A stretch of 53,964 nt of DNA, filler included, from an uncultured virus (IMG/VR IMGVR_UViG_2061766007_002098) (4 parts of one record of this genome joined end to end with filler, not necessarily neighbours in it); one strand, 5' to 3'. Numbered from the whole stretch's first letter, positions 16,389 through 49,628 are shown. Program-made: numbers and translations. The notes: generated by a model from the sequence alone, not told the origin.

Positions 16389-16457
16389 GCCCGCCGGGTG
16401 CGATTTACAAAGGCGTATTATTGTGTTGCGGCACAAATGTGCCTGCACCCATTGGGC
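16389..16457 (-). ncRNA. 69-nt hairpin RNA, copy A
   Basis: GCCC-N3-GGGTGC ... GCACCC-N3-GGGC closing stem, inner hairpin, CAACACAA; starts 3 nt after tRNA-CAT. Confidence 0.65.
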
Positions 16458-16460
16458 TAT

Positions 16461-16533
16461 TGCACCACCCAGGATTCGGACCTGGAACCAGCGAGTTATG
16501 AGTCCGCCGCTCTGACCGTTGAGCTAGTGGTGC
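16461..16533 (-). tRNA. tRNA with CAT anticodon (Ile2/Met-like)
   Basis: GCACCAC/GTGGTGC acceptor, GCTC-AACGGTCA-GAGC, GCGGA-CTCATAA-CTCGC, CCAGG-TCCGAAT-CCTGG. Confidence 0.85.
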
Positions 16534-16621
16534 GGGTGGCCGTTGTCTCCGAAAGTGGCCGGCTTTCTACCAGTATTACAGGAGGGTTGTCTGTCCTTAC
16601 TCGGTCAGGCTGTCGAGAGAA

Positions 16622-16694
16622 TCAGAAAGGCAGTCCATCCAGGTCCTCGTCGCTAGGCGGCGCGTAGCCATGCGCCTGCTGCGGCGGGTTCGCG
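16622..16694 (-). CDS. ssb: SSB C-terminal tail (fragment)
   Basis: ...HGYAPPSDEDLDGLPF*. Confidence 0.6.
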
Positions 16695-16704
16695 NNNNNN
16701 NNNN

Positions 16705-17150
16705 GTTGCCGACAATTTTCATGTTGGCCTTGAGGACTTGAGGGGAGTAGTTCTTACGGAAAACGAGGTTGATGTAATTAGGCAATCCGTACTGTTTACC
16801 GAGTTCGATAAACTTGAATTGCTGCTCGAACTCGCAGAACAGAATCATGCAGGGCGCGCGTCCGCTTTCCTTCGGCTCCTTCGTGAGCATTTTAGAACAG
16901 AAGTGCATGAATTCGGCGGGGCGGAATTCGTCCTCGGAATTGAAAAACTTTTTTCCTGCAAGTTCGCTTTCGCCGTTCTTGTTNNNNNNNNNNNNNNNNN
17001 NNNNNNNNNNNNNNNNNNNNNNNNGTTCGTTCCGAGGTTGTACGGCACATCGGCTATAATAAGTTGAGCTTTTGGAATTTGATAAACCTTGTAATTCTGG
17101 AAGCTGTCTCTATACAGGTTCATATCGTACAGGTGCCATTCGTTGTTCAT
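16705..17150 (-). CDS. second allele of the beta-class DNA MTase (fragment)
   Basis: Near-identical to 15718-16057. Confidence 0.8.
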
Positions 17151-17389
17151 TTCGTTGTATCCTTCCTTGTTTCAAATCCGTTCCCGCAGTTATGGCCTGC
17201 GGGTGGAGGCGCGGCGGTTACACCTTCTCTGTGGCATAGCTAATCCGTTGATTTTTATGCCGCCTAGTGGCGTGGGCGGTATGCAAAAAATGGAGTCTTC
17301 TANNNNNNNNNNTGTATGTTTACAGATTTTAGAAGAAAGTTCAGTTGTTGGTTTAACTTTCAGTTTATGCTGCCATCGTGCAAATTCGG

Positions 17390-17458
17390 GCCCTCCGGGT
17401 GCTGGTAAATTAGGGGTTGTGTTGTACACTAGTGTCAAACTAGTTGCACCCATCGGGC
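17390..17458 (-). ncRNA. 69-nt hairpin RNA, copy B
   Basis: Same closing stem; inner ACTAGT-TTGAC-ACTAGT; then CAACACAACCCCTA. Confidence 0.65.
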
Positions 17459-17576
17459 TTTTAAGTTCATGCGGCCTTCTTCAGCTTGCCGCGGTAGGTA
17501 TCGTTGTAAGTCTTTTTCTTCGCCTTGTATGCAGGGTCGTCCTTGTGTCTTGCCCTGTATNNNNNNNNNNATTTTC

Positions 17577-17645
17577 GCCCTCCGGGTGCGGAACTTATAG
17601 GGGTTGTGTCGTACACATGTGTCAAACATGCTGCACCCATCGGGC
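17577..17645 (-). ncRNA. 69-nt hairpin RNA, copy C (allele of B)
   Basis: Inner GCATGT-TTGAC-ACATGT shows compensatory change relative to B. Confidence 0.65.
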
Positions 17646-18186
17646 TTTTAAGTTCATGCGGCCTTCTTCAGCTTGCCGCGGTAGGTATCGTTGTATATCT
17701 TTTTCTTCGCCTTGTATGCAGGGTCGTCCTTGTGTCTTGCCCTGTATTGCCTGGCGTATTCCCTCATGGCTTCCGGGTGTTCCCTTTTCCACTTGTCGGC
17801 GTTGGCACGCATCTTTTCCTTGTGGGAGGCGTAGTATTCGGCATCGTAGTCGGGGTGGTTATCGCGCCACCGCTTGCTCCGTCTCTTGCCGTTTTCCACC
17901 CTGTTCCGCTGCACGGGGTCTTCAATCCTGTGTACCGTTGCGGCGGGTCTCATGCGTTCGCCTATGAGTGATTCCCAGTTAGCCATGTTTTCTGTTCTCC
18001 GGTTTAAAAACTTGTCTACTTCGTGAGCTTCTGCATTTGATTCATGAGGGCGCGCATCTGCCCTTCCTTCTGTGTGCGGTCGTTCTTTTCGAGGTGGGCG
18101 CGGATTTCGTTGCCGAAGTGGCGGTCTATTGCCCGGTAGCAGGCCACCATCGCGCCCCACGCCTTCGAGTAGTCCGTTCTATGCTT

Positions 18187-18352
18187 GGTGCGCTCCATAG
18201 CTGCCGTGCGCTCCATAGCTGCCGTGCGCTCNNNNNNNNNNTCGGTCGATGGCCCGGTAGCAGGCCACCATCGCGCCCCACGCCTTCGAGTAGTCCGTAC
18301 TGTGCTTGGTGCGCTCCATAGCTGCCGTGCGCTCCATAGCTGCCGTGCGCTC
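18187..18352 (-). repeat. 18-bp coding tandem repeat (ERTAAM)n, duplicated across gaps
   Basis: GTGCGCTCCATAGCTGCC units on the plus strand. Confidence 0.85.
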
Positions 18353-19150
18353 NNNNNNNNNNTTCTTCATGCAATCCTTGAATGCGCTTTCAACGAGCCG
18401 CTTGCCTGCGGATTTCATGAGCTGGCAATGGATAGCTTTCAGGGCGTAGAAATAGGTGTTTTCGCGCTCGTTGAGTTCGTGGATGGCGTTCTGCAATTTC
18501 AGCACCTTGCGGGCGAGGCATACCTCAAGCGCGGTGTGGCTCCCCCCCCCCTGGCNNNNNNNNNNAGCCATGAAAAGCGCAATCTTGGCAAGTTCCTTCT
18601 CGCGCTCGGTCGCATCTTCGGGAAGGTTGCTCACGCGCCCCTTCTTCTCGTCAAAGAACCGCTGCTGCGCCTCGGTCAGTTTCCATTCGGTATTCATACC
18701 CCCCCCCAGCGTTTTCAGGGCCTCGGCAAAGGGAGGGTTCCCGATGCAGTCGTTATAGATGTGTTCGTGTTCGTTGTTCATTTTGTTTTACCTCTTTTTT
18801 AGTTGGTTGATTTCGCTTTCAAGTTCCTTTATCCTGGCTTTCGCCATGTCCCATTCGACCTCGTGCTTGCGCAGCTCTTCAAGCTCTCCGCTGATGGCTT
18901 CAAAAGTCTCGCGCAAGAGGGCCACGCTTTCGGCACCTTCTTCGTTCCTGATGCTCACGGTCTTTTCGTACTTGAGTAGGCGGTTCACGAGCGCATTTCT
19001 TTCTACCACGAGGGCATCGTAGGCGTGNNNNNNNNNNGTTTTACCTCGTTTTTAGTTGGTTGATTTCGCTTTCAAGTTCCTTTATCCTGGCTTTCGCCNN
19101 NNNNNNNNAGAGTTCAATTACCATTTTGTTTCTCCTGTTAAAAAAGGCTA

Positions 19151-19252
19151 GTGGAACTGGCGGAATCGAACCGCCATCACAAGGCATTCAGTTTCACTTA
19201 GTCTTAAGAAACCTTGTGCGCACCGAGCGTGCCGTGGTGCCGCACTTTTCTA
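19151..19252 (-). ncRNA. tRNA-like RNA with extended anticodon-position stem
   Basis: T arm GGCGG-TTCGATT-CCGCC, stem CACAAGG/CCTTGTG, D-position hairpin GCACC/GGTGC; poor acceptor stem. Confidence 0.5.
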
Positions 19253-19288
19253 TCAAGGGCTGCGGCTCACCCCTGCCGGAGACACGGC

Positions 19289-19732
19289 TTAGAAGGGCAA
19301 ATCGTCCGCGTATGCGTCCGCCTGTGCGTCCATTCCCTGCTGGTAGTCGTTGGCTACCTCCTGCCCGAAAACGGAACCCTGCTGGCCCTGCGGCTGCGTA
19401 TTCCTCGGCGTGAGTACCTGGAACGTGCTGGCGTTGATTTCGGTCATATAGCGCTTCTGCCCGTTGTTGTCCGTCCACGAGCGGTTCGCAATTTCGCCTT
19501 CCACGTAGAGCTTCACGCCCTTGCCTACATTCAGCTTCTCGAAGGTCTCGGCAGACTTGCCCCAGATGGCGATGTTGTGCCATTCGGTAAGCTCCTTCTG
19601 TTCGCCGTTATTGTCGCGGTATTTCTTGGAGGTGGCGAGGGAGAAGCGCACGCACTTCTTGCCGTTCGGGGAGGTAACGGTAGGGTCTTTCCCGATGTTG
19701 CCGATAAGCATTGCTTTGTTCAAATAGGCCAT
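19289..19732 (-). CDS. ssb: single-stranded DNA-binding protein
   Basis: MAYLNKAMLIGNIGKDP...TEWHNI...LYVEGEI...DDLPF. Confidence 0.95.
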   Translation of the reverse strand: MAYLNKAMLIGNIGKDPTVTSPNGKKCVRFSLATSKKYRDNNGEQKELTEWHNIAIWGKSAETFEKLNVGKGVKLYVEGEIANRSWTDNNGQKRYMTEINASTFQVLTPRNTQPQGQQGSVFGQEVANDYQQGMDAQADAYADDLPF

Positions 19733-19742
19733 ATTTACCTCG

Positions 19743-20186
19743 TTACTTGATGGAAAGAGTTCGTTCCTTGGGCTTCGCGATGATCACGTCGGGGACGAGT
19801 TCTGCGAGCTTTTCTACCGTCATTCCGGAAGCCTTCGAAATCTGCGAAACGGTGAGCTGCTGGAACAGCTGTGTCTGCGATACGAGTCCGCGTTCGATGA
19901 GGGTGTTCGCCATAATTTCTGCGGCGCCTTCCATCCAGTCGTAGGTGTAGCTCTGCTTGCTCCACTTCATGCCGGCTGGGAGGTCTTCTTCCGTCCCCAC
20001 GTTCATGGTGTGCTTGGTCGCTTCCTTGATGGATGCTGCGGCCTTTTCACACCACGCCTTCAGTTCCCAGTTCTCGCGGATTTCGCCCGCGCGGAGGGCG
20101 CGCTGCTGGATGAATTCGGCTTGCTGTTCATCGCCCATTTCCACGCCGGCGTTCGCAATCATCCACTTGAGGGTGTCTGCGGCTGC
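19743..20186 (-). CDS. recombination-module protein resembling the C-terminal part of DUF2800 (N-terminus in gap)
   Basis: EEDLPAGMKWSKQSYTY...LTVSQISKA...IIAKPKERTL. Confidence 0.55.
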   Translation of the reverse strand, partial: AAADTLKWMIANAGVEMGDEQQAEFIQQRALRAGEIRENWELKAWCEKAAASIKEATKHTMNVGTEEDLPAGMKWSKQSYTYDWMEGAAEIMANTLIERGLVSQTQLFQQLTVSQISKASGMTVEKLAELVPDVIIAKPKERTLSIK

Positions 20187-20497
20187 NNNNNNNNNNCAAT
20201 CGTCATAGATGTGTTCGTGTTCGCTCATTTTTTTCCTCGTTGTTGTTCGTCGATAATCCTTGCTTTTGCCAAATCGTCAGCCAATTTCTTCCAGGTGGCG
20301 AGTTCTCGTGCGAGTTGGTTTCGCTCAACCATAAGCGCGTCGTAGGCGTGATGCCATTTACCAACCTCGTTTTCAAGTTGCTTTGTGTAGTCTTTGTATT
20401 CTTCTATTGTCTGCATAGTAAACTTTGCCGGTTTCGTTCGCCGCCACTCGGCGGCTANNNNNNNNNNNNNNNNNNNNNNNNNNNNNNNNNNNNNNNN

Positions 20498-20538
20498 GGG
20501 TTATGAGTCCGTAGCTCTAACCGTTGAGCTAGGCGAGC
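20498..20538 (-). tRNA. tRNA-CAT, 5' half (3' half in gap)
   Basis: GCTCGCC-TA-GCTC-AACGGTTA-GAGC-T-ACGGA-CTCATAA-CCC. Confidence 0.7.
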
Positions 20539-20633
20539 TGTGTTTCGTTCAAAAGTTTCCCACCGCAAGACCGAGACAAAAAAAGACTAGGGTGAGTTTT
20601 ACGGCCTTGCGGTGGTGCGGGAACTTCCCGCGA

Positions 20634-21155
20634 TTACTTGAAGCTCAATGTCCGCTTCTTCGGCTTAGCTACGATCTGGTCGGGGTACATGTCGATGAGC
20701 TTTTCCTTGGTGAGCCCGCTCGCCCTAATTACCGCGTCCACCGAGAGTTCGCACAGCGCAGTGTCGGTGGTGCAGATGCCCTTGCTTTCAAGGTCCTTCA
20801 CTACCTGTACGGAACTGCCGTATGCGTCCCACTCGTAGGTATACGACTGCTTGCTCCAGCTCACCTTCACGCCGTCCTCGCCGTCGGGGAGTTCTTCGGG
20901 CGTGCCGAGGTTGTAGAGGTGTTCGGTGTATTCCTTGATGTCCTTGCAGAGTTTTTCCAAACCCTTGCGGAATTCCGTCAGCTCGCGCATGGGACGGTTG
21001 AGGCCGTTGCGGAGGGAAATCACGTCGGCGAGCGTTTCCTCGTCGAGTTCGATGCCCGCGTACTTCTTCGCGAAGAGGAAGGCGTTCACGGCGCTCTTGG
21101 AGAGTTCGAGGGATCCCAGTTCTGCGGGCGTGGTGAGTACGATTTCGTTAGCCAT
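20634..21155 (-). CDS. DUF2800-C-like paralogue
   Basis: MANEIV...GTPEELPDG...WSKQSYTY...IVAKPKKRTLSFK. Confidence 0.55.
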   Translation of the reverse strand: MANEIVLTTPAELGSLELSKSAVNAFLFAKKYAGIELDEETLADVISLRNGLNRPMRELTEFRKGLEKLCKDIKEYTEHLYNLGTPEELPDGEDGVKVSWSKQSYTYEWDAYGSSVQVVKDLESKGICTTDTALCELSVDAVIRASGLTKEKLIDMYPDQIVAKPKKRTLSFK

Positions 21156-21790
21156 TGTCGGCCTCCTTGTTGATTTCGGCCTGAATGGCCTTGAAAACNN
21201 NNNNNNNNNNNNNNNNNNNNNNNNNNNNNNNNNNNNNNNNNNNNNNNNNNNNNNNNNNNNNNNNNNNNNNNNNNNNNNNNNNNNNNNNNNNNNNNNNNNN
21301 NNNNNNNNNNNNNNNNNNNNNNNNNNNNNNNNNNNNNNNNNNNNNNNNNNNNNNNNNNNNNNNNNNNNNNNNNNNNNNNNNNNNNNNNNNNNNNNNNNNN
21401 NNNNNNNNNNNNNNNNNNNNNNNNNNNNNNNNNNNNNNNNNNNNNNNNNNNNNNNNNNNNNNNNNNNNNNNNNNNNNNNNNNNNNNNNNNNNNNNNNNNN
21501 NNNNNNNNNNNNNNNNNNNNNNNNNNNNNNNNNNNNNNNNNNNNNNNNNNNNNNNNNNNNNNNNNNNNNNNNNNNNNNNNNNNNNNNNNNNNNNNNNNNN
21601 NNNNNNNNNNNNNNNNNNNNNNNNNNNNNNNNNNNNNNNNNNNNNNNNNNNNNNNNNNNNNNNNNNGAGAGAAGACCCTTTTTGCTCGACGGAGCGCGAT
21701 CTTGGCGCAAAGCCTCTGTTTGTCCTTCGCAAGGTTTAGTTCGAAATTGTTATCCATGTTGTGCCTCTCTTTTTGTGTTGTCGTATCCTA

Positions 21791-21829
21791 AATATACAAT
21801 ATCGTGAGCGTATTGTCAATAGGTGAGCG
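21791..21829 (-). promoter_or_regulatory. strong early promoter with operator-like repeats
   Basis: TTGACA-17bp-TATATT; GTGAGCG direct repeats at 21804 and 21823; TATTG-T-CAATA palindrome over the -35. Confidence 0.85.
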
Positions 21830-21991
21830 AAAAAAAAATTATTTTTTTCTCGGCTATGTCCACCCAAAGTGTGGCTAGTTTGAAAAATCGTTGAAATTAG
21901 TCCAATTTCGCCATTTTCCACCCNNNNNNNNNNNNNNNNNNNNNNNNNNNNNNNNNNNCCAAATACTTTTCAAAATTTGTCATCGTCACCC

Positions 21992-22288
21992 CTAGAAGAC
22001 AAAGTCCTCGTCTTCTTTCTTTTGCGGTTGATTGGGAAGGAGGCCGTTTCGCTCCATCAGGGCGTAGCCTATCGGATGCAGGGGAAGGCGCGGATTTTCG
22101 CCCCAGTCGTTGCCGCATTGGCGCTGGACTTCCGGCTCTATCATGGTCTCCCAGTAGCGGCGGAGGTTATTGTCATCGGTCGAATACGCGCGGACATATT
22201 CGTCGTATTTTCCGTGTAGGATAGCCCACAGCTTGACGGTTTCCCGCTTGTTGATCTGCTTTATATCGAAACTCATGCGCTCTTGCAC
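21992..22288 (-). CDS. hypothetical protein downstream of the replication initiator
   Basis: 98-aa ORF overlapping the initiator stop codon. Confidence 0.55.
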   Translation of the reverse strand: MQERMSFDIKQINKRETVKLWAILHGKYDEYVRAYSTDDNNLRRYWETMIEPEVQRQCGNDWGENPRLPLHPIGYALMERNGLLPNQPQKKEDEDFVF

Positions 22289-22408
22289 CTATTGGCTTTA
22301 GCAGTCTCGCACCATGTAACGAGGAAAGCTTCAAAGTTCTTTATCTTTCGCCCGTCGGCGTCATTTCCGCCACGTTCCATCGTGGCTTCCCAGCAGTTAC
22401 GGGCGTCG
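22273..22408 (-). CDS. probable replication initiator C-terminus (fragment)
   Basis: ...GRKIKNFEAFLVTW pattern typical of replisome-organiser C-termini. Confidence 0.45.
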
Positions 22409-23300
22409 NNNNNNNNNNNNNNNNNNNNNNNNNNNNNNNNNNNNNNNNNNNNNNNNNNNNNNNNNNNNNNNNNNNNNNNNNNNNNNNNNNNNNNNNNNNN
22501 NNNNNNNNNNNNNNNNNNNNNNNNNNNNNNNNNNNNNNNNNNNNNNNNNNNNNNNNNNNNNNNNNNNNNNNNNNNNNNNNNNNNNNNNNNNNNNNNNNNN
22601 NNNNNNNNNNNNNNNNNNNNNNNNNNNNNNNNNNNNNNNNNNNNNNNNNNNNNNNNNNNNNNNNNNNNNNNNNNNNNNNNNNNNNNNNNNNNNNNNNNNN
22701 NNNNNNNNNNNNNNNNNNNNNNNNNNNNNNNNNNNNNNNNNNNNNNNNNNNNNNNNNNNNNNNNNNNNNNNNNNNNNNNNNNNNNNNNNNNNNNNNNNNN
22801 NNNNNNNNNNNNNNNNNNNNNNNNNNNNNNNNNNNNNNNNNNNNNNNNNNNNNNNNNNNNNNNNNNNNNNNNNNNNNNNNNNNNNNNNNNNNNNNNNNNN
22901 NNNNNNNNNNNNNNNNNNNNNNNNNNNNNNNNNNNNNNNNNNNNNNNNNNNNNNNNNNNNNNNNNNNNNNNNNNNNNNNNNNNNNNNNNNNNNNNNNNNN
23001 NNNNNNNNNNNNNNNNNNNNNNNNNNNNNNNNNNNNNNNNNNNNNNNNNNNNNNNNNNNNNNNNNNNNNNNNNNNNNNNNNNNNNNNNNNNNNNNNNNNN
23101 NNNNNNNNNNNNNNNNNNNNNNNNNNNNNNNNNNNNNNNNNNNNNNNNNNNNNNNNNNNNNNNNNNNNNNNNNNNNNNNNNNNNNNNNNNNNNNNNNNNN
23201 NNNNNNNNNNNNNNNNNNNNNNNNNNNNNNNNNNNNNNNNNNNNNNNNNNNNNNNNNNNNNNNNNNNNNNNNNNNNNNNNNNNNNNNNNNNNNNNNNNNN

Positions 23301-23432
23301 GAAAGCTAAACAAAACCTATAGGTTATTTTTAGCTTTGAAAAACAAAAGCTAACTAAAAGCTAAACGAAAGCTAACCATAAAGCTAATCAAAACAGAAGC
23401 TAGACTCTAGATGCTAGATGCAAGAATCTAGA
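23301..23432. repeat. iteron array (putative origin)
   Basis: AAAGCTAA at 23302, 23346, 23357, 23368 and 23380, one inverted copy at 23330, then CTAGA repeats; stops in all frames. Confidence 0.7.
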
Positions 23433-23461
23433 ATATATTCTTTTCCATATANNNNNNNNNN

Positions 23462-23714
23462 CCGGCGCTATTCTTCGGAGGTCGACCGCCCTGCCTTCCG
23501 TTTTCGGCCTTGGTCTTTACGGCCTTGAACGCCTTTTCGTAGGCGTGCCTGGCACGTTCGGATTTTTCCAGCTTTCCGGAAATCAAAGCCATGCGGAAAA
23601 GGTATTCCTCGCGGCCCAGCGCCTCGAAGTCAACCGTACCGAAATCGTCTCGAAACTTGTCGTTCAAGAGCGCCAAGTCTGCGATCCAAAGTTTAACCCA
23701 TTTAGGCTCGTTCA
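23462..23714 (-). CDS. replication initiator N-terminus (fragment)
   Basis: MNEPKWVKLWIAD...KAENGRQGGRPPK, typical of YdaU/DUF6291-like initiators. Confidence 0.6.
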
Positions 23715-23872
23715 TCTTCCGTAACCCTCTTAAATTCGTTTTCAAGGGCTAGTCCGATGGCGTCCGCCTGGGAAATGCTGACTCCCAGCTTATCGGAATA
23801 CGCCTTTTGCAATGTCGGGATAGTCTTCTCGGCCTTGCTGCGGGGGATTGCTTTAACTATAAATTGATCCAT
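23702..23872 (-). CDS. 56-aa putative ribbon-helix-helix regulator
   Basis: MDQFIVKAIPRSKAEKTIPTLQKAYSDKLGVSISQADAIGLAL...; AAGGA RBS; inverted repeat CGTGACA-CCA-TGTCACG at 23887-23903. Confidence 0.55.
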   Translation of the reverse strand: MDQFIVKAIPRSKAEKTIPTLQKAYSDKLGVSISQADAIGLALENEFKRVTEDERA

Positions 23873-24090
23873 TAATCATCCTTATGCGTGACACCATGTC
23901 ACGTTAATAATGTTTATGCCTGAAAGATACGTGCGTACCTCTCTCTTTACGTTGCCTTCGCCGAACATATCTACGACGTACTTGCAGTAGTCCCTGGTTT
24001 TAGCGTTGAGAATCCAGTCGTTCTTCGGCTGGAAAACCAAGCACTTGTGCCCCAAACCATTTNNNNNNNNNNTTTTTTCTCCTTTCTGAA

Positions 24091-24456
24091 TTATGCGGTG
24101 AACCCGTTCACCTTCGCCTCGTGTTCCAGCATGACGCGGAATTGCGGCACTGTTGGCGGTATAAGTCCGTGGTTGAGCGGTGCGTCGGCTGGGTAGCCCT
24201 TGGCTACGGGCAGCATGCGCCAGTATTTCTTGTAGAGGTCCTCAAGCATCTTCTTCTTCGGCCTGTCGAACGCGAGCGCCTTCTGCACGTTGACGTACTC
24301 GTAGCGGTCGCCGACCTTGTGGCGCACGTGGGCCTTGCAGTAGTTGACGTACTCGGCGTCGGAAATCGCTGCAGACAGGTTTCGGATGGCGGTCATCATG
24401 TTCATGCAGCGCCTCTTGTAATCGTCGGGCAGCCATGCTGTACGGTTATCAGCCAT
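24091..24456 (-). CDS. hypothetical protein
   Basis: 121 aa, overlapping operon. Confidence 0.6.
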   Translation of the reverse strand: MADNRTAWLPDDYKRRCMNMMTAIRNLSAAISDAEYVNYCKAHVRHKVGDRYEYVNVQKALAFDRPKKKMLEDLYKKYWRMLPVAKGYPADAPLNHGLIPPTVPQFRVMLEHEAKVNGFTA

Positions 24457-24937: not shown

Positions 24938-24945
24938 ATTGTCTC

Positions 24946-25653: not shown

Positions 25654-25659
25654 TTATTA

Positions 25660-26111: not shown

Positions 26112-26184
26112 CCCACTCCCCATTACATATCATTTCATATNNNNNNNNNNNNNNNNNNNNNNNNNNNNNNNNNNNNNNNNNNNN

Positions 26185-38564: not shown

Positions 38565-39453
38565 ATGTCTTTATCTACCGAAAAATACGGCTTCATCATC
38601 GATCCTTTCTTCTCTTTCATGGATGAAAAGGGAAATCCTATCAAGAACGGATTCCTCCGCATCTTCCTTGCAGGAAGTTCGACTCCGGCCGTTACCTACT
38701 TGAATTGGGCCGGAGCGATGAACCAGGAAACAATCCAGCTTGACAACTCCGGCCGTTGCTATACCCGCGTAATTGGGGCGAAGGGTACGCTTTACAAGGT
38801 CGTGGTCTATAATATCCTCCACTCCCAGGAAAACCCGCTCCTTACGGTAGATAACGTCCAGGTTATTAGCTCTGCTGCAGATGTTTTAGACGGTTCTGTT
38901 ACAACTCAAAAACTTGCAGACGAAGCTGTTACTGCAGCAAAGCTTCATGAAAGCGCGGTCACAACATTAAAACTTGCAGACGAAGCTGTTACTGCAGCAA
39001 AGCTTCATGAAAGCGCGGTCACAACATTAAAACTTGCAGACGAAGCTGTTACTGCAGCAAAGCTTGCAAATTCTTCTATTTCAGAAAATAAGCTTACAGA
39101 CGATCTTAAATTAAAAGTAATCAAGGACTACGTGACTCCCGAAATGTTCGGTGCCGTGGGTGATGGGGTTGAAGACGATACTCAAAGCGTAACGGCCGCT
39201 GTTGCTTCTGGAAAGAATTTATTGTTGGTTGGAGTGTACAGAATCGCCAGCCTCGTAAAGATTCCTAGAACTTGTAAGGTTTTTAGAACAACAGGGTCTT
39301 TTGCAGTTGACGCCTTTGATACCGATACTCAAACGGGTGGCTGGGTTTTCTTCTCTTACCCCGAATTGCCCGTGACTCCCGAAATGTTCGGTGCGGTAGG
39401 CGACGGAGTGGCAGACGATACGAAGGCCATCCAAAATGCAATAGATGCCAACC
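38565..39453 (+). CDS. tailspike N-terminus (P22 head-binding domain plus repeats)
   Basis: FMDEKGNPIKNGFLRIFLAGSSTP...IQLDNSGR; two VTPEMFGAVGDG..DDT motifs. Confidence 0.8.
38909..39068 (+). repeat. 60-bp coding tandem repeat (KLADEAVTAAKLHESAVTTL)
   Basis: About 2.7 near-identical units. Confidence 0.85.
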
Positions 39454-41201: not shown

Positions 41202-41224
41202 TTTATAAAAATCAAGGAGGCCTT

Positions 41225-41714: not shown

Positions 41715-41775
41715 CAATTGTAACCCATCCGTGCCCACCCGCTGACGGACTCCCGCTGTTGAGCGATTTCTAGCC

Positions 41776-41801
41776 AGCAGCTGACTCTTAATCAGCGGGT
41801 C
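41776..41801 (+). other. tRNA-Lys(CTT) fragment
   Basis: AGCA-GCTGA-CTCTTAA-TCAGC-GGGTC; no D arm or acceptor upstream. Confidence 0.7.
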
Positions 41802-41833
41802 NNNNNNNNNNTAAAACTCAGGCTGAAGCCGGT

Positions 41834-42910
41834 ATGGTCCACACGAAGCATAGTGCGCTTACGGTCGTATTAACGAATACTTACAAGACTAGCGATGCTA
41901 TTCTTGTAAGGGCAGAACAACATTTTAACCCCCTCATTATCGATGGTGGCAAAAAAGCCAATATTATTGGCTCTAGTACAGATGATGCAGAATATATTAA
42001 CTACGGCATTAGAGTTTTGAAACCTGACAATTACCCTCAGGGGGATATCGACACGCAAACCCGAAAGCATATCTACGGCCTAGGATTTATGCGTTATAAA
42101 AACGCCATTTACTTTGACGGCGCTGATTGGGATAGCTCTGTAGAACATTGTTTCTTCCAAGACATTTCTGTAAATGCAATCTATTTGCGTGAGAGCGACG
42201 GAACGCTCGTTAAGGACAATTATTGCAGTTGGGTCTGGGGAAAATTCATCCATCTTTGGTATTCTAACGCCTGTCGAGTGATTGGCAACCACTCGGGTGA
42301 ATATGGCGATAATCCTCCGGGTGGAATTTTGGTGGAGTACGGGACTAACAGCCCGAACGTCATTACAGATAACGTTCTTAAAGGCTGCGGCATTACTATT
42401 CAAAATCGTAACAACATCGGGGATATTGTAGCAAACAACGTAATTAAAAATACTCTATCCGATGCGGGAATTACTATCCCTAATAGTGCTGTTGGAGTGA
42501 ATATCAACGGAAACACTCTTATGAACTGCACTATCGGTGTGGATATTTTTGGAAAGCAAACGTTAAAAGGAAATACCTTTGTCGGTTGTGCAATCGGAGC
42601 AAAACTTGATGGCTACCAGCATACTAGAATCGTTGTTGACGATAACGATTTTGAAAAATGTACAACGGGTATTTATCACGTTGCAAACTCATGGGATAAC
42701 GTCTTCAAGGATAATGTCTTCAGGGAAAATACAACGGCTATTGAAGCAGCAGATGTCTCAATGAAAAGCGTAGTTGACGGGAATTTCTTCTTGGAATGTA
42801 CACATCTGTATTCTTACACTCCGTCTAGCAGTGGGAACGACCCGATTTTTGGCACAAATTACAGCACTCAAAGCGGTTTTGAGACTGGAAGTCTGACGGA
42901 ATCTGTTTAA
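41834..42910 (+). CDS. right-handed parallel beta-helix protein (tailspike C-terminal allele)
   Basis: Repeated I..N.I.N / GNTF..C..G rungs. Confidence 0.75.
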   Translation: MVHTKHSALTVVLTNTYKTSDAILVRAEQHFNPLIIDGGKKANIIGSSTDDAEYINYGIRVLKPDNYPQGDIDTQTRKHIYGLGFMRYKNAIYFDGADWDSSVEHCFFQDISVNAIYLRESDGTLVKDNYCSWVWGKFIHLWYSNACRVIGNHSGEYGDNPPGGILVEYGTNSPNVITDNVLKGCGITIQNRNNIGDIVANNVIKNTLSDAGITIPNSAVGVNINGNTLMNCTIGVDIFGKQTLKGNTFVGCAIGAKLDGYQHTRIVVDDNDFEKCTTGIYHVANSWDNVFKDNVFRENTTAIEAADVSMKSVVDGNFFLECTHLYSYTPSSSGNDPIFGTNYSTQSGFETGSLTESV

Positions 42911-42941
42911 CATAGGTGTAGAATAGATTTAGTATTGTAAC

Positions 42942-42967
42942 CTCTTAATTAGCGGGTCGCAGGTTCG
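42942..42967 (+). other. tRNA-Lys(CTT) fragment
   Basis: CTCTTAATTAGCGGGTCGCAGGTTCG, from anticodon loop to T loop. Confidence 0.65.
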
Positions 42968-42979
42968 CAAAGGAAACAT

Positions 42980-43086
42980 ATGAAACTCACGCTCAAAGAC
43001 CTCGTTAAGCTAATCGCCCCGTACCTCGTCGCCATCGGCGGGGCTATCGGGGTGTATGCTGACGGGAAGTCTAGATTCGAATTGAT
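42980..43086 (+). CDS. small membrane (holin-like) protein, truncated
   Basis: AAGGA RBS; MKLTLKDLVKLIAPYLVAIGGAIGVYA. Confidence 0.45.
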
Positions 43087-43130
43087 NNNNNNNNNNNNNN
43101 NNNNNNNNNNNNNNNNNNNNNNNNNNNNNN

Positions 43131-43142
43131 TTAATTAATTAA
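43131..43142. other. artificial scaffold-joining linker
   Basis: TTAATTAATTAA inside N runs. Confidence 0.95.
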
Positions 43143-43186
43143 NNNNNNNNNNNNNNNNNNNNNNNNNNNNNNNNNNNNNNNNNNNN

Positions 43187-43402
43187 TCCGAAGCCTGCGC
43201 CAGACACATTGACGTGTACGAAGAACCGAATGGCGCGTGGTGCGGCGACGTTTGGAAAGCCTTTGTAAAGCTCCGTGCCACGTTGCCGTTCGCTATCTAT
43301 ACATGGAATCACGACTGGGGTTGCGGCGTAATAGATACTCAATTTATCACGGTTGAAAACGAAAAGTCCTTGCCGGAGGATGTCGAAAACCTCACTTACA
43401 AG
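43187..43402 (+). CDS. class I SAM methyltransferase C-terminal fragment
   Basis: WCGDVWKAFVKLR...DWGCGVI, as in glycan-associated methyltransferases. Confidence 0.55.
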
Positions 43403-43506
43403 NNNNNNNNNNNNNNNNNNNNNNNNNNNNNNNNNNNNNNNNNNNNNNNNNNNNNNNNNNNNNNNNNNNNNNNNNNNNNNNNNNNNNNNNNNNNNNNNNN
43501 NNNNNN

Positions 43507-44487
43507 AACCTCGTTCCAGCTCTCCTTTTGACAGAGGATGTCGAATCGTTCTTTTAGGATTTCGGCCGTGCAGTTTTTCGTGATCTTGGAAAGCGGATGC
43601 GCTTCTTCGTATGGTCCGAAATTGAAGGAAGAACCGAGAAGGACCGCCCCAATTGCTGTTGCTTCGAGAAGCTTCAAGTTACTTTTTGCCCGATTGAATA
43701 CGTTATCCTGGAGGGGCGCCAAGTAAAAGTTAGGATTGATGCTTGCGATGGTAGCTGGGAATTCGATCGTAGAGACGTTCTTGTGTACAGTTATCCTTTC
43801 CTTGTATTCCTGCAGGCAATCCGGCACGTTGAAAAGATGCAGATCGATTCGGTCGTTCGCTACGGCGTTCTTTAGCCAAGGGAGCCATGGTCCCGCAAAG
43901 TCGCCGTCCATTCCTTCCCTAAAGTGAGAAGTAGACCCCGCGTAAAGGACTCTAGGCTTGTCAAGGTCACCTCCTACAAGGTGTCTTTCGATATACCCGA
44001 AAAAGAAGCGCGGGACGGCGTTGGGCAGAAGCTTAACGTGCTTCCATCCGAAGCGGTACTCCATGCAGCGCTTGAGCCATTCTGTAGTGACCGTCACCCC
44101 GTCAATGTCTCCGAGGCTGCGTTCCATGATGGCGCCTACGGGCTTCACGTCTATGCGGGTGATATTGTAGGTCGGGATCGTCTGCTTTCCGTCAAGGTCA
44201 AAGACAATATCGTCAAAGTCCGCAAAAATCTTGAAGCCGAAGCGGTTACGCTTGCGTTTGTAGTGCTGGATGAAAGTTTCCTGGTTCTCCGTTGTCGGCC
44301 TAAAAATCACGATCGCGGCGGTGTACTTGAGGATGTAATCGTCGGTGATTTCGGCACGCGAGACTATAACCTCCACGTCGCCGGAACGGCTGGAGCGTAG
44401 CAAGGCTGCCATGGCGTCGCAGCGGTAGAAAGCGCAGGCGCTCTTGTCGGCCGGGTGCAGGATGATTACGTTCTTCTTGATGAACAT
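43507..44487 (-). CDS. GT-B (GT4-like) glycosyltransferase
   Basis: SACAFYR, FADFDD, YAGSTSH, LAPLQDNVFNRAKSNLKLLEA. Confidence 0.85.
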
Positions 44488-44526
44488 TGCTATTCCTCCC
44501 ATGTAATGACGAAATANNNNNNNNNN

Positions 44527-44863
44527 TGGCTCCCCATTCGGTACGGCCTTCACCGATGCGGATTTTCGGGTTCTTGAATTCCAGGCGGCGTTCCTTGTCT
44601 CCGGCTTTCGGGTAGCCGAGGGTAAAGACGAGGCTGTCAAAGTGTTTTACCCATTCACCGCTATTTACGTGACTCTTTACAAAATCCTCAAAGTGAGTCA
44701 TGAAATGCGCGGATTTCGTCGCCGCCACGCAAATTTCGCCGAGGCTGTATTTGAGAAGGCGGCTCGTCCAGTAAGCGCTAGATTCGCGGTACTCTTCTTT
44801 TTTGATTCCGGCCTTGATAAGGTCGAACCATTTCTTTTTAAGTGGTAGTGTTAAGGTTTTCAT
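44527..44863 (-). CDS. ASCH-domain protein (second copy)
   Basis: LTLPLKKKWFDLIKAGIKKEEYRE...FTLGYPK...EWGA. Confidence 0.8.
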
Positions 44864-45599
44864 TTTCCACCTCTAAAGCCACGTAACGGCGAGTGTAAGC
44901 ACGCCTGCGGCTATCCAATAAACAAACATCTTTACATCGCCCTTGAACGCATACGGCACCGCCGCGATAAAATCCAAGGCCATTAAGATCGTAGGGAATA
45001 CTTTCTCCATTAGACAAATTCCCCTTTGCTGTATTTATAAGGTTCTACAACCCGGTCACGCTCGTAGAGAGATTCTCCTTTCCGCCTTCGCTTCATCTGC
45101 TTGGGCGTTAGCTGGTAAAAACCTCTTACAGAGTGCCATTCGTTAACGGGTTTTACCGTATCANNNNNNNNNNCTTGCTGAAATCGTAAGGCTCGACAAC
45201 CCGGTCACGCTCGTATAGCGTTTCGCCTTTTCGCTTTCGCATCATCTGCTTGGGCGTGAGCTGGTGAAAACCTCTTATGGAGTGCCACTCGCTAACGGGT
45301 TTTACCGTTTCATCTGTCGCCATTGTTGACCTCCTTCTTTTCGCAAGCAAGACAGATAAACCGATGTTTCTCCTTATCGAGCCTGCAGTTTTTCATGAAT
45401 CCGCAAACGTCGCAATTCACGTAGTCAAGATAAAGCCTTCTTTTCATTCGGCCACCTTCGGGACTGGTAGTCCGTGCTTGATCCTGTNNNNNNNNNNCGC
45501 AGGAAAGACAGATAAACCGACGTTTCACCTTGTCAAGCCTGCAGTTTTTCAAGAATCCGCAAACGTCACAATTTACGTAATCAAGATAAAGCTTTCTTT

Positions 45600-45962
45600 T
45601 CATTCGGCCACCTTCGGGACTGGTAGTCCGTGCTTGATCCTGTAACGATAGGTGCCGTATTTCATGCCCGTTCTTTTTTCGAAAGATTCCTGCCATCGTC
45701 TCACGTAGGCGGTGACCTTTTGGCGGTGCTTCCGTTGGTATGTCTTGCACTTTCTGTTGTTGGCGGCCTTTCCCTTTGGCGTGTTGCGGTATCGCTTGGA
45801 ACGGCGGCGGGCAAGCTCGCGTTCGTGTGACCGTTTTTCCATGGCCCTTTCGCGCATTTCCGCAGAGGTAGCGCACAACATCGTATCTACGGCGCTAATG
45901 GAGGCGAGGGCGGAACGGCGGCGGGCTTCGGCGTAAATGTCGATTTCTTTTTTCTTCGCCAT
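45600..45962 (-). CDS. basic hypothetical protein
   Basis: 120 aa, Arg/Lys-rich, directly after ssb. Confidence 0.55.
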   Translation of the reverse strand: MAKKKEIDIYAEARRRSALASISAVDTMLCATSAEMRERAMEKRSHERELARRRSKRYRNTPKGKAANNRKCKTYQRKHRQKVTAYVRRWQESFEKRTGMKYGTYRYRIKHGLPVPKVAE

Positions 45963-45971
45963 CTTTCCACC

Positions 45972-46403
45972 CTAGAACGGAAGTTCGTCTTCGTTTTCCT
46001 GCGGCATTGCTCCGGCGGTCTTTTCTTCCTTCGGCGGGTTGCTGTAGTTGTAAGCCGGGGCGCTGTTGGTGCGCGGCGTGAGAATCTGCACCGCGTCGGC
46101 CTGCAGTTCCGCGATGTTCTTCTGCTGTCCGTCCTGGTCTACATAGTTGCGGAAATTCATTTCGCCGGACACGAAAAGGGAAATTCCCTTCCCGATGTTC
46201 AGGTTCGCGATATTCTCGGCCAGCTTGCCGAAACAAACCACGTTGAACCAGTTCGTGATTTCCTTCTGTTCGCCGTTCTTGTCGCGGTACTTTTTCGATA
46301 CTGCGACGGAGAAAAGGACCTTCTGTCCTCCGCTGGGAAGGGTTACGACGGTTGCGGGCTTGCCCGTGTTTCCGATGATTTCAGTTCTGTTCAAGTATGC
46401 CAT
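45972..46403 (-). CDS. ssb: single-stranded DNA-binding protein
   Basis: MAYLNRTEIIGNTGK...NEDELPF. Confidence 0.9.
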   Translation of the reverse strand: MAYLNRTEIIGNTGKPATVVTLPSGGQKVLFSVAVSKKYRDKNGEQKEITNWFNVVCFGKLAENIANLNIGKGISLFVSGEMNFRNYVDQDGQQKNIAELQADAVQILTPRTNSAPAYNYSNPPKEEKTAGAMPQENEDELPF

Positions 46404-46717
46404 TTTGTTTTTTCCTTTTTGTTGATGGTAAATTTTACCCATGGATGATTTTTGCGATAGCGCAAGCGACGGCGACGCAGTAAAAGAGAATGAGAACCAA
46501 GGCCACGATAGCGACGAACCACGTCCAGACATCGTTTACGATCTGGTTGAAAGTCTTCTTTGTCTTCATTTTAACGTCTCTATTATTTTTTTGTAACAAG
46601 CGTTGCAAAGATTGAAATAGTCATAACCATTCTCTTTTGCAACAGTAACAAAGTTTATATCACTAATGTTTGTATCTTTTTTACATTTGGTGCATAAAAA
46701 TTTTCTCATTTTCTGAT

Positions 46718-47140
46718 TCATACTACCTCCTTTTCGATATTGTCGCACACCTTGCGGAGCTTTCTAGACAAATCCTTCTTTCCTTCGGGGTAGTTGTTCA
46801 TGTTCTTGTCATACGGCAACACCGAGTTTACAAACACGTTGTATATGTCTGTTGCGAGGAATTTCGCGCTGTTGCTTCTGTGTATTTGGTGGCACGGTCT
46901 GCACAGAGGGTGTCCGCATCCGTAATCCTTGAACGAGTACGAGAATTCGTAGATTATGAATTCTCCCACGGCGCAAAGTTTAACGCTTACGTAAGAGTGC
47001 GGAATCAATCCTTCGCGGAATTCAAGACAATTATCGGTATACACGCCGCAAGCGTTCTGAATGCCTTCGCCTATTGCGGATAGGCGCCACGGACGGTTCT
47101 GCGGGTCGTCCGCGAATATGTCAAGTTGTACGGAGTCCAT
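46718..47140 (-). CDS. hypothetical protein with N-terminal QLDIF motif
   Basis: MDSVQLDIFAD. Confidence 0.65.
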   Translation of the reverse strand: MDSVQLDIFADDPQNRPWRLSAIGEGIQNACGVYTDNCLEFREGLIPHSYVSVKLCAVGEFIIYEFSYSFKDYGCGHPLCRPCHQIHRSNSAKFLATDIYNVFVNSVLPYDKNMNNYPEGKKDLSRKLRKVCDNIEKEVV

Positions 47141-47150
47141 TTATAAATCC

Positions 47151-48014
47151 TTAACCTTTCTTGAATACCAAAATATTTTGGTGTACCTTTACGAGTTTAC
47201 GTGTTTTCATGTTTCCTTCGGCTCTCATAGAAGCAGAGGCAATAGGGTTCAACAGAATAGCTTCGTTGTAGTAGTTCATTCCGCAATCCATAAATGCCTT
47301 GATAGTGTCCGGCACAAATCCGATATAATTACCATTTTTACCGCGAACCTCTCCGACAACAAAGCAAGCGAAACCGCCCTTTTTGAGTTTAAAACAAGCC
47401 TTCTTTATAATTGATCGATAGGCGACAAGGAAATCTTTGTAATTCATATTTGAAATGTCTCCTTCCAAGTCGCTGTAAACCTCCAAGTCTGCGTAAGGAG
47501 GACAAGAAAAAACGAGGTCGTATTCGCGCACGATTTTGTCCAATACCTTGTTAGAATCTCCGACATAGTAGTTAGGTTGGTTGTCAACATCCAAGATTGC
47601 CTGGGCTTGTTCGCGGTTTGAGTCAATTTGTTCTTGACGAATGTCAATGCCAGTGTAATTATAACCGAGATAATTCGCGACAATTCCGCGAACGGAACCG
47701 CCCGCGAACGGGTCGAGAATATCTCCGTTTTCTGGGCAGAACCACTTGTAAATAACTTCACACAAAGCAGGGTCAAATATTGAAACATAGTCAACAGAAT
47801 TTTTTTCTTTTGCGGTTGTGTCAATGTGGATGCAGGAGGAATCTCGACCTATTTCGGATTTGATTCCCTTCATTTTCCACAAGTTCTTGCGGACTTGCCA
47901 CGGCCCTCTTTTGGTGTCAATTACGCTAAATGGAGGCTCGATGAACTTGTCGCGAAGGATTACATCTTGCTTGACTGGCACGCCGAACAAGTCTACTTGT
48001 TCATACCCCCCCCC
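47151..48014 (-). CDS. alpha-class (N4C-type) DNA methyltransferase (start in gap)
   Basis: SIFDP, ILDPFAGGSVRG (motif I), VFSCPPY (motif IV). Confidence 0.9.
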   Translation of the reverse strand, partial: GGGYEQVDLFGVPVKQDVILRDKFIEPPFSVIDTKRGPWQVRKNLWKMKGIKSEIGRDSSCIHIDTTAKEKNSVDYVSIFDPALCEVIYKWFCPENGDILDPFAGGSVRGIVANYLGYNYTGIDIRQEQIDSNREQAQAILDVDNQPNYYVGDSNKVLDKIVREYDLVFSCPPYADLEVYSDLEGDISNMNYKDFLVAYRSIIKKACFKLKKGGFACFVVGEVRGKNGNYIGFVPDTIKAFMDCGMNYYNEAILLNPIASASMRAEGNMKTRKLVKVHQNILVFKKG

Positions 48015-48042
48015 NNNNNNNNNNCGTATTCTTCGTTGTAAA

Positions 48043-48609
48043 TCATGCGGCCCCCTTCCTCCTCTTGGATTTCTTGTCAATGGCGAATCCTTCCGGCTGC
48101 AATCTGTGGCCTTCCTCGTCATAGTATCCGAGTTGCACGCGCCTCTGGAATACGCTAGGCTGTTCTTTCTTGAGGTTCTGTATGTACTCCTCGTCTGTGT
48201 ATCCAGTCAATCGCAAGTAAACCTTATGGAATTCGTCGGAGTTCATTACTTTCTTTTGAATACATTCCCCGCTATAATGAACGTAGGCATTTATATGCCT
48301 TCCGTCCTTACGTTTCCATGAGTATTCAATCGCGTCTACGTTGCAGATTTCGCGAGCGGTTATGGGCTTCCCACAGCAGAAGCATTCTCCAATAACATCT
48401 TCGTAGTCCACGCGGTCATCTTCGCGGAGGTCGTACCAGTAAATGCCAGCCTTGACAAATCTGTCTACGCACTCGGCCACGTACTCGCGCACGTTGCCTC
48501 TATATTTGGCCCATAGTTCATTGCATATTGCTTCTGCCTTGCGTTCGCAGATAACATGGAGCGGTTCTTCTTCCACGGGTGCGAACATGTCAAGCTGTAC
48601 TGCGTCCAT
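48043..48609 (-). CDS. hypothetical protein with N-terminal QLDMF motif
   Basis: MDAVQLDMFAP, CxxC. Confidence 0.65.
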   Translation of the reverse strand: MDAVQLDMFAPVEEEPLHVICERKAEAICNELWAKYRGNVREYVAECVDRFVKAGIYWYDLREDDRVDYEDVIGECFCCGKPITAREICNVDAIEYSWKRKDGRHINAYVHYSGECIQKKVMNSDEFHKVYLRLTGYTDEEYIQNLKKEQPSVFQRRVQLGYYDEEGHRLQPEGFAIDKKSKRRKGAA

Positions 48610-48700
48610 TTACAAATCCTTAACCTTTCTTGAATACCAAAATATTTTGGTGTACCTTTACGANNNNNNNNNNATGCCTCTTGTTTGATGTTGTAACCTA

Positions 48701-48739
48701 AATATATATTATCGTGAGCGTATTGTCAATAGGTGAGCG
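48701..48739 (-). promoter_or_regulatory. second copy of the strong early promoter/operator
   Basis: Near-identical to 21791-21829. Confidence 0.85.
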
Positions 48740-48789
48740 AAAAAAAATCGCAACCACCCATTATGGCTGGACGGTGCGACCAGTTTTTT

Positions 48790-48840
48790 TTACTTCTTGG
48801 GCGGTTTCTTTCCGCCTTTCTTCTTGCCACCGCAAGCCAT
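48790..48840 (-). CDS. 16-aa basic micropeptide MACGGKKKGGKKPPKK
   Basis: GGAGG RBS, ATG...TAA, followed by a hairpin and T run. Confidence 0.6.
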   Translation of the reverse strand: MACGGKKKGGKKPPKK

Positions 48841-49305
48841 AGGGCCTCCTTGGTTGAGGGTTTTACAAAAGGTTCTCCAGGGGTAGCGCCTTCTTTGTCG
48901 GAACTATACCAATCTAGTTTTTTATCCCGCCAAGAGGCTCTGGTCGGTTCTTACGGAGAAATCTACGAGCAACCCTGGAGCGCCGGAGCCATCGTTCGTT
49001 CAGGCGTCCGGCCTTTTAAATTTTTCCCTGCAGAAAAGCCGCTTATAGAAGAAGAAAACTGAAACGAGTCACGTCTTCGCCGCAGGGTTTCCCCCGATCG
49101 TTCGGTCACGGGGAGAAAATCACCTTCTAGTCCCTGTCATTGTCGATAAGGTCGATAATTCGAGCCTGCAAAGCCTTCTTGTAAGCCTTCATTGCGGCAA
49201 GCTGTGCAGGCCAGAGAGCTTTCGCGGATGCGTTTACGCTGGCGGGATCGGCCGCAATGGCGTTNNNNNNNNNNGATCGTTCGGTCACGGGGAGAAAGTT
49301 ACCTT

Positions 49306-49513
49306 CTAGTCCTTGTCATTGTCGATAAGGTCGATAATTCGAGCCTGCAAAGCCTTCTTGTAAGCCTTCATTGCGGCAAGCTGTGCAGGCCAAAGAGCTT
49401 TCGCGGATGCGTTTACGCTGGCGGGATCGGCCGCAATGGCGTTNNNNNNNNNNAGTTGGAATCTTCGCCTGTTCCTGGCAGAGCTGGCCGATGTTTTCGC
49501 AAGTATCACCCAT
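49306..49513 (-). CDS. crAss001_48-like small protein (gap inside; duplicate 3' end at 49127-49264)
   Basis: QLAAMKAYKKALQARI motif. Confidence 0.5.
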
Positions 49514-49559
49514 AATTTATTCCTTTGCCTTTCCTGGCGGTTTTTGATTGTGAATTGTC

Positions 49560-49628
49560 GCCCTCCGGGCGGTGAAAGTTAGGGGAGCATTATACCCTTG
49601 TGTTGTGGTAAAATGCGGCCCGGAGGGC
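49560..49628 (-). ncRNA. 69-nt hairpin RNA, copy D
   Basis: GCCCTCCGGGC...GCCCGGAGGGC stem, CAACACAA loop, CCCCTAA; starts 5 nt after tRNA-Ser. Confidence 0.65.

Follow-up and report, generated by a model that had tools for sequence, protein, structure and literature searches.

Which function could be served by a hairpin that occurs four times, at exactly 69 nt each time, in one stretch of viral DNA, and that twice stands directly behind a transfer RNA (tRNA) gene? The stretch is a record of an uncultured virus (IMG/VR IMGVR_UViG_2061766007_002098) of 53,964 nt, filler included, and is called the window in the following; its four hairpins are called elements A to D. They belong to a sequence family carried by a group of rumen phages. 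The family folds on the tRNA-sense strand, has a nearly constant closing helix around a variable interior and is mostly found a few nucleotides behind a tRNA 3′ end, at the place of a terminator, with no U-tract. Tentatively, the element may be a cis-acting hairpin that punctuates a read-through phage transcript, where it would assist the release of tRNA 3′ ends and the protection of the transcript together with a postulated binding factor; this explanation is quite possible, but we would stop short of calling it probable.

A preliminary description, made from the window alone, had interpreted the hairpins as a family of small phage RNAs acting in trans. The family itself, its strand and its position relative to tRNA processing were borne out by the relatives, whereas the fixed length, the copy number, the role as a sponge and the trans-acting RNA were not. 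That description did not contain the host-terminator position without a U-tract, the covarying hairpins downstream and the finding that the constancy resides in the closing helix rather than in the interior. Bacteroidota phages embed tRNAs lacking the CCA end in operons, and ribozymes resembling that of hepatitis delta virus (HDV) are already known to free the 3′ ends of such tRNAs. If the punctuation hypothesis is correct, a second, unrelated structure would be found at the same spot; tRNA release from read-through transcripts would then be a recurring problem with several solutions, and a factor reading a small helix motif (RAU opposite GGA) would be expected. If it is merely a stem that resembles a terminator and has been retained through shared ancestry, the element is nothing unusual.

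A hairpin family with a constant closing helix

A search for GCCC-N3-GGG...CCC-N3-GGGC with a gap of 40 to 65 nt returns exactly the four elements that had been proposed in the window, each of 69 nt, and no match in 100 shuffles. Furthermore, when the entire window was searched with a covariance model and the filters were disabled, only A to D were detected (E 9e-24 to 2.5e-14), and the next match other than their reverse strands has an E value of 0.75. As had been described, all four contain the motif ACACAA, and B, C and D also contain CCCCUA. Element A starts 3 nt after a tRNA-Met and element D 4-5 nt after a tRNA-Ser; because these tRNAs and the open reading frames (ORFs) flanking the elements lie on the minus strand, the elements must be read on this strand as well (Table 1).

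Table 1. Coordinates of the elements, neighbouring tRNAs and accompanying hairpins in the window
Feature	Position	Strand	Description
Element A	16389..16457	-	69 nt; closing helix GCCC-AAU-GGGUGC / GCACCC-GGC-GGGC; inner hairpin GGCAC/GUGCC
Element B	17390..17458	-	69 nt; same-locus allele as C and A; after ORF stop + ACUUAAAA
Element C	17577..17645	-	69 nt; allelic duplicate of B across N-gap 17561-17570; after ORF stop + ACUUAAAA
Element D	49560..49628	-	69 nt; closing helix fully paired, GCCCUCCGGGC / GCCCGGAGGGC
tRNA-Met (CAT)	16461..16533	-	no encoded CCA; spacer AUA (16458-16460) before A
tRNA-Ser (GCT)	49633/49634..49715	-	no encoded CCA; spacer CUAAA (49629-49633) before D
hp2	16353..16378	-	10 nt after A; covarying 7-bp stem, conserved 12-nt loop (G/A)UGAMCNAACGAU
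hp3	16275..16350	-	14-bp long-range stem CCCUGCGGACAGAG / CUCUGCCCGCAGGG around conserved block UUCUAAAA...GAAUUACAC
Larger paralogous hairpin, 5′ part	17313..17384	-	UUUGCAC-GAU-GGCAGC...; interrupted by N-gap

Relatives were collected by pattern scans of sequence collections followed by scoring with covariance model R1; the loci found are designated by L numbers. Four scans of viral contigs gave 3, 6, 17 and 8 loci. From the third, 13 of the 17 loci were accepted, all with E<=3.3e-7; L263 and L273 were dropped (E 0.094), and L258 and L274 gave no score. The D-type scan of viral contigs yielded seven real loci out of eight, the remaining one (L306) being a coding, GC-rich chance match. Metagenome contigs contributed at least 118 rows, at least 18 of which were accepted after scoring; L204, L161, L160, L233, L220 and L139 were discarded because they were weak or rich in GC, as were L173, L181 and L193, which matched the regular expression only. 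The bacterial genome collection gave at least 120 rows, and among the matches listed only L041 is a relative, the other listed ones being GC-rich chance matches (both by inspection). Altogether, at least 27 distinct relatives were obtained, consisting of the 25 analysed here and two D-type variants added later. Viral and metagenome contigs are the source of most of them. One relative, L041, comes from a contig of 2.7 kb that had been assigned to a bacterial metagenome-assembled genome (MAG), which the record labels as Paludibacteraceae from cattle reticulum. In 151 genomes of the family to which this MAG belongs, the covariance model matched two, namely the MAG itself and one weak place, and the element is thus regarded as phage-borne rather than as part of the general host repertoire. 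When eight other viral or provirus records were searched with the model, seven contained one copy and one contained two. A count of four per genome does not apply, since the window is a composite with 63 N-runs and duplicated segments. Similarly, a length of 69 nt is not a trait of the family: it is found in only six of the 25 relatives, whose elements range from 53 to 87 nt.

The element has no counterpart in Rfam, in agreement with the preliminary description. A search of the whole window at gathering thresholds detected three tRNAs only, and searches at E<=10 or E<=1, which covered nine related loci in addition to the elements and the sequence around them, gave nothing over the elements or the hairpins downstream of them. 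The CRISPR-DR models of Rfam did not match any element at E<=10 either, in a comparison with Rfam families. A description of the element was not found in full-text searches of the literature, although the supplements of a paper on theta ribozymes (PMC10879173), which lie outside that search, could list neighbouring motifs. The motif is therefore new to catalogues but familiar in its general kind, that of a stem-loop at a phage tRNA or gene boundary.

The closing helix is nearly constant and has the form GCC(C)-RAU-GGGUG(C/U)A ... (C)CGCACCC-GGA-GG(G)C. It consists of 3-4 bp, a 3x3 internal loop in which RAU lies opposite GGA, and a further 6 bp, and it is kept in the predicted fold of all 25 relatives, with the loss of two outer pairs in L234. 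It encloses an interior of 27-63 nt that is variable, A/C-rich and poor in G (11% G compared with 25% on the minus strand of the window; A+C 64%). ACACAA is present in 14 and CCCCUA in 13 of the 25 elements; otherwise, the loop is freely replaced. The inner hairpin, which had been taken as a general feature, is missing from the predicted fold in 7/25, and the shorter members resemble deletion derivatives that have lost half of it. Where it is present, its stem changes on both sides: CUAG/CUAG in one of the alleles B and C corresponds to CAUG/CAUG in the other, as had been noted, and GGCAC/GUGCC to GGCCA/UGGCC elsewhere. Base pairs were counted in 30 distinct rows; as this alignment was fitted to the covariance model, it leans towards the structure. 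In these rows, 5 of the 13 pairs of the closing helix are invariant. The internal loop is formed by G.A, A.G and U.G in 27/30 rows and is replaced by Watson-Crick pairs (UCC/GGA) in three D-type rows, and one member shows a compensatory flip to GGCC/GGCC.

Several observations concern the strand. U.G or G.U wobbles occur at three helix positions (in 27, 7 and 1 of the 30 rows), whereas an A.C mismatch is found nowhere in the closing helix. The wobbles would be mismatches on the opposite strand, and the element is constantly co-oriented with tRNAs and genes, which together argues for the tRNA-sense strand as the folded one and hence for a sense-strand RNA, although the wobble evidence amounts to three independent positions only. 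Folding z-scores, averaged over the 25 elements, also favour the sense strand (-2.2 compared with -1.5 for the antisense strand).

The tRNA boundary and its known signals

A tRNA or tRNA-like 3′ end lies 2-11 nt before the element in 16 of 24 distinct upstream contexts. Eleven of the 24 contain a co-oriented tRNA (Met, Ser, Thr or Ile) that was called by ARAGORN and whose end lies 2-9 nt before the element; another five contain tRNA-like 3′ ends, two of which were called as intron-bearing, one at a relaxed threshold and two not at all. In 13 of the 16 tRNA-linked contexts the spacer is no longer than 5 nt (by inspection). It nearly always starts with (C)UA, which may be followed by further A's. 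Wherever the flanking genes and tRNAs could be read, they are located on the element's strand. In this position, as had been proposed, processing of the tRNA would release the 5′ side of the element. Some of the tRNA-like genes are unusual: those preceding the element in L002 and L223 are found by ARAGORN only with inserts of 20 nt and 39 nt in the anticodon region, and L143/L262, L135 and L174 have 3′ ends resembling a T-arm and acceptor with no standard tRNA call.

The position of the element can be compared with the tentative host. Of 24 tRNA genes examined in the MAG of L041, the majority have a canonical terminator that starts 1-8 nt after the tRNA and is made up of a C and an A-tract followed by a hairpin and a U-tract; the phage element occupies this very position. 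Both are GC-rich stem-loops on the tRNA strand, a few bases after the discriminator, and in both, C/U-A and a stretch of A's often come before the stem. However, the terminator loop comprises 3-8 nt compared with the 27-63 nt of the element's interior, and the element has a near-invariant stem with a conserved 3x3 internal loop and mostly no U-tract. An adjacent U-run is present in two of the 25 elements (L151/L271 and L171) and absent from the other 23. In addition, genes follow the element with no recognisable promoter in between (46 nt in the case of D). A canonical intrinsic terminator was rejected on the basis of the missing U-tract and the long interior. Two further observations were made on the tRNA genes of the MAG (L277-L301): nearly all 24 are without an encoded CCA, 'CA' coming next, and the A-tract and U-tract of their terminators mostly lengthen the stem. 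In L001, a plain 6-bp hairpin (GCCGCC-GAGU-GGCGGC, 657-676) follows a tRNA-Met and the same UA spacer and has no U-run; it is separated by about 480 nt with no convincing ORF from the small ORF that precedes the element.

A transcription signal of a different, regulated type might still be encoded by the element, for example a factor-dependent terminator, a pause site or a nut/put-like antitermination site that separates early from later genes. Such a signal would be in line with the one or two copies per record, the fixed place between the SSB/RecT/Erf genes and the methyltransferase region, the terminator position after tRNAs, the two members with U-runs and a helix whose sequence is conserved as in a factor-binding site. 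Rho prefers C-rich, G-poor RNA, and the loop of the element is of this composition. We nevertheless regard this explanation as unlikely, as the U-tract is missing in 23/25 elements and the scanned ORFs, most of which had no match, include no antiterminator, NusG-like or Q-like protein. PHROGs and Pfam searches of the neighbouring ORFs, most of them again with no match at all, did not detect an RNase, a CCA-adding enzyme, an RNA ligase, an antiterminator or an RNA-binding family.

A parallel in position is provided by the theta ribozymes, HDV-like ribozymes that reportedly lie within 5 nt of phage tRNA 3′ ends, are found to ~90% in phages of Bacteroidota hosts and accompany tRNAs mostly lacking CCA, with tRNA-Met as a frequent partner (PMC10879173). 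The element likewise lies directly 3′ of CCA-less tRNAs, often tRNA-Met, in Bacteroidota gut and rumen phages, and the presumed role of theta ribozymes in tRNA 3′ end formation matches the one proposed for the element. However, its spacer measures 2-11 nt instead of the 0-1 nt given for theta ribozymes, and it has neither the HDV double pseudoknot nor the conservation of a catalytic core nor an Rfam match. HDV-like and theta ribozymes were rejected because the element is a nested hairpin whose 5′ end pairs with its 3′ end and which contains no internal complement to its first 7 nt (by inspection); hammerhead and twister ribozymes were rejected after inspection of the fold, as their core motifs are lacking. 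The element could also represent a new class of self-cleaving ribozyme that does the job of theta ribozymes at tRNA 3′ ends, for which the same position in the same kind of phage and the tandem G.A pairs of the conserved internal loop might be cited. This is highly improbable: the first bases pair with the last in a nested hairpin rather than a double pseudoknot, no Rfam ribozyme model matches at E<=10, and the interior, which can shrink to 27 nt, contains no invariant core.

A different parallel is offered by substrates of RNase P, which is known to cut hairpin-loop model substrates, pre-4.5S RNA and the phage M3 and C4 RNAs (PMC11143913). Like these substrates, the element forms a stacked helix of about 12-13 layers from its 5′ and 3′ ends with a G at the first pair, and it directly follows a tRNA in the manner of the second tRNA of a dimeric precursor. 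In contrast to these substrates, it lacks a T-loop-like cap and a 3′ RCCA, and the length of its helix is not fixed (12-13 layers in the element and 16-17 in a larger paralogue).

A probable structured sense-strand transcript

The region downstream of the element is structured as well. Behind A, two further hairpins (hp2 and hp3) show changes on both sides in 11 of 21 pairs, with G.U pairs on the same strand as in the element. The conserved block within hp3 is also written UUCUUCUAAAA...AAUUACAC. The hp2/hp3 modules recur in L001, L002, L004, L041, L148, L183, L234 and L270. A larger, paralogous hairpin lies 5-6 nt after B-type elements. It is cut by an N-gap in the window but complete, at 94-109 nt and with the same RAU/GGA loop, in L003 (1577-1672), L007 (467-575, minus strand), L209, L223 and L266 (1254-1362). 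It has the form UUUGCAC-RAU-GGCNGC ... GCNGCC-GGA-GUGCAAA, its inner stem covaries (GGCAGC/GCUGCC, GGCGGC/GCCGCC and GGCCGC/GCGGCC), and in L003 it ends ~25 nt before the next start codon. The RAU/GGA loop is thus, as far as the sequences tell, a recurring module. Since the downstream hairpins covary and carry their G.U pairs on one strand, the whole intergenic region probably forms a structured sense-strand RNA.

Promoter motifs were looked for in this region. The conserved block TTCTTCTAAAA...AATTACAC is present in 9/9 aligned loci, inside a covarying stem, and was not among the sigma-70-like sites listed by the promoter scan; TCTAAA blocks before other genes show no clear pattern. Promoter and terminator scans of the window and of a 20-kb stretch of the MAG gave counts equal to those of shuffled sequences. 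A promoter inside the hairpin (TTGACA ... TATAAG, or TAnnTTTG-like) was rejected, as the spacing is wrong and the motifs are unconserved (by inspection).

These features would be explained if the element served as punctuation in a read-through transcript. RNA polymerase would read past the element into the next hairpins and genes; signs of such read-through are the start codon 46 nt downstream of D and the covariation of hp2 and hp3 downstream of A-type elements. The tRNA would be cut away within the short (C)UA-A spacer; candidate enzymes are RNase Z, acting after the discriminator, an enzyme of the RNase E type, and RNase P, for which the stacked helix might pass as a substrate of the hairpin type. 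Thereafter, the helix could shield the new 5′ end of the downstream RNA, block 3′ exonucleases, or both. That the 3′ strand CCCGGAGG hardly varies and that the RAU/GGA loop recurs in the second, larger hairpin class suggests that the helix may be recognised by a specific binding factor, which is postulated here.

It has to be considered whether the element acts as an RNA in its own right. A dedicated factor that binds or cleaves RNA might use the helix as its handle, with the G-poor loop as a specificity region. The element would then represent a new class of tRNA-linked phage RNA that, once freed by tRNA-processing enzymes, serves as a guide or decoy or acts like a theta ribozyme that depends on a protein; we think this rather doubtful. 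A similarly low probability is assigned to a free small RNA that is released by tRNA-processing enzymes, uses its helix as a protein handle and pairs with or sequesters a target through its loop as a guide, sponge or decoy. There are precedents for this in the tRNA-linked stable RNAs of T4 and in the E. coli leuZ 3′ trailer sponge, and the element would be suited to such a role: its 5′ side abuts a tRNA 3′ end in 16/24 contexts, a constant helix is combined with a variable single-stranded loop containing 11% G, and a CA-rich motif recurs (ACACAA). However, a defined 3′ end signal is lacking, with a U-run in 2/25 elements only, and the loop is altered by indels and replacement so that no seed is conserved (ACACAA in 14/25, CCCCUA in 13/25). 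The only target that had been proposed is the sequence UGUUGUG in a 77-nt RNA ~225 nt upstream of D, for which the D loop was thought to act as a sponge; this 7-mer and its complement occur nine times in the window where about six occurrences are expected, which is chance level. Contigs from public RNA runs gave no cover over 16379-16444. The trans-acting guide, anti-Shine-Dalgarno or decoy RNA of the preliminary description therefore found no support, and a promoter or terminator of its own was not seen in the scans.

A number of points weigh against the punctuation hypothesis. A purely structural hairpin needs no near-invariant sequence, and for this reason a factor had to be postulated; one to two copies per phage would also leave room for a specific site with a regulatory, replicative or recombinational role. 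Eight of the 24 upstream contexts are not linked to a tRNA but have an ORF or unassigned sequence upstream, and the third tRNA of the window (12720-12810) is not accompanied by such a hairpin. With regard to folding, 19 of the 25 elements have the lower absolute energy on the antisense strand, and paired changes in a palindromic stem can arise by template switching, in which case no selection on an RNA is required. The host assignment is tentative, as it depends on one 2.7-kb contig binned into a MAG. Finally, the public RNA runs sharing a few words with the region are represented by contigs only, with 16379-16444 uncovered, and provide no support from expression or RNA ends. Among the contigs of two of these runs, one of low depth joins 16264 to 16457, thereby bypassing the element as well as hp2 and hp3, and two others continue differently, with unrelated sequence, after tRNA-Met (16454). 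These contigs, each of them a single one of low depth, suggest variants of relatives in which modules are present or absent, rather than expression.

Exchange at the element and the composite window

In several cases, homology between related phages begins or ends at the element. L003 and L190 share an identical 71-nt element with unrelated sequence on both flanks. The homology between the window and L138 restarts 1 nt before D, while the upstream segment is swapped (tRNA-Ser versus tRNA-Thr). L143 and L216 have different interiors and a common downstream sequence, and L259 and L268 diverge exactly at the 3′ edge of the element. Judged from these alignments, the edges of the element are apparently recombination junctions, and the element would mark hot spots at which related phages exchange tRNA genes and small ORFs.

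This mosaicism might indicate that the element acts at the level of DNA, as a recombination linker or a small mobile hairpin of PeSL- or attC-like type whose conserved arms mediate the exchange of modules. In addition to the junctions described above, the Erf and RecT annealing proteins encoded by these phages would fit this possibility. PeSLs of T4-type phages are composite terminator/promoter motifs and reportedly serve as points of genetic exchange (PMC4122927, PMC2839356). Like the element, they are conserved intergenic stem-loops that border swapped segments, with homology breaking at the motif (PMC2839356, PMC4122927). In contrast to PeSLs, which are numerous, the element is present in one or two copies per genome (eight records), is tightly tied to tRNA 3′ ends, belongs to phages of a different host phylum and has no demonstrated promoter partner. 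Moreover, it always points in the same direction as the tRNA or genes beside it, its wobble pairs are strand-specific, and no target-site duplication is visible in the flanks (by inspection), so that a primary role in DNA exchange seems unlikely to us. It would be compatible with the punctuation hypothesis, because recombination at a conserved functional RNA motif gives the same pattern. An integron attC site was rejected, although the general layout of two helices, an unpaired spacer and a variable top is similar: the arms contain no GTTRRRY core (by inspection), and the sole integrase is of the phage type and located ~10 kb away.

The make-up of the window determines how its own copies are to be read. 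Besides 63 N-runs, it contains segments that appear side by side in variant copies. In a self-comparison, 17390-17560 and 17577-17747 are 92% identical, 15720-16186 and 16811-17281 are 87-94% identical, and 49096-49264 and 49275-49443 are 98% identical; 50338-50624 and 53095-53385 were paired as well. The window furthermore carries three SSB genes, two RecT genes and one Erf gene, and it is a composite scaffold of related phage variants rather than a single genome, which makes any count per genome taken from it unreliable. From the N-runs, the duplicated variant segments and the surplus of SSB and RecT genes it follows that A, B and C are alternative versions, or alleles, of one locus, bordered on one side by a tRNA or small ORF and on the other by a methyltransferase-like gene, and that D is a second locus or variant.

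Other parts of the window were noted in passing. A blastn search with 7 kb of structural genes against the phage database gave no match. The third tRNA (minus strand) is 91 nt long and was called with a four-base anticodon, and a tail-fibre-like ORF of 878 amino acids contains perfect repeats with a period of 60 nt at 38909-39065 (97 nt, 100% identity, at offsets of 60 and 120).

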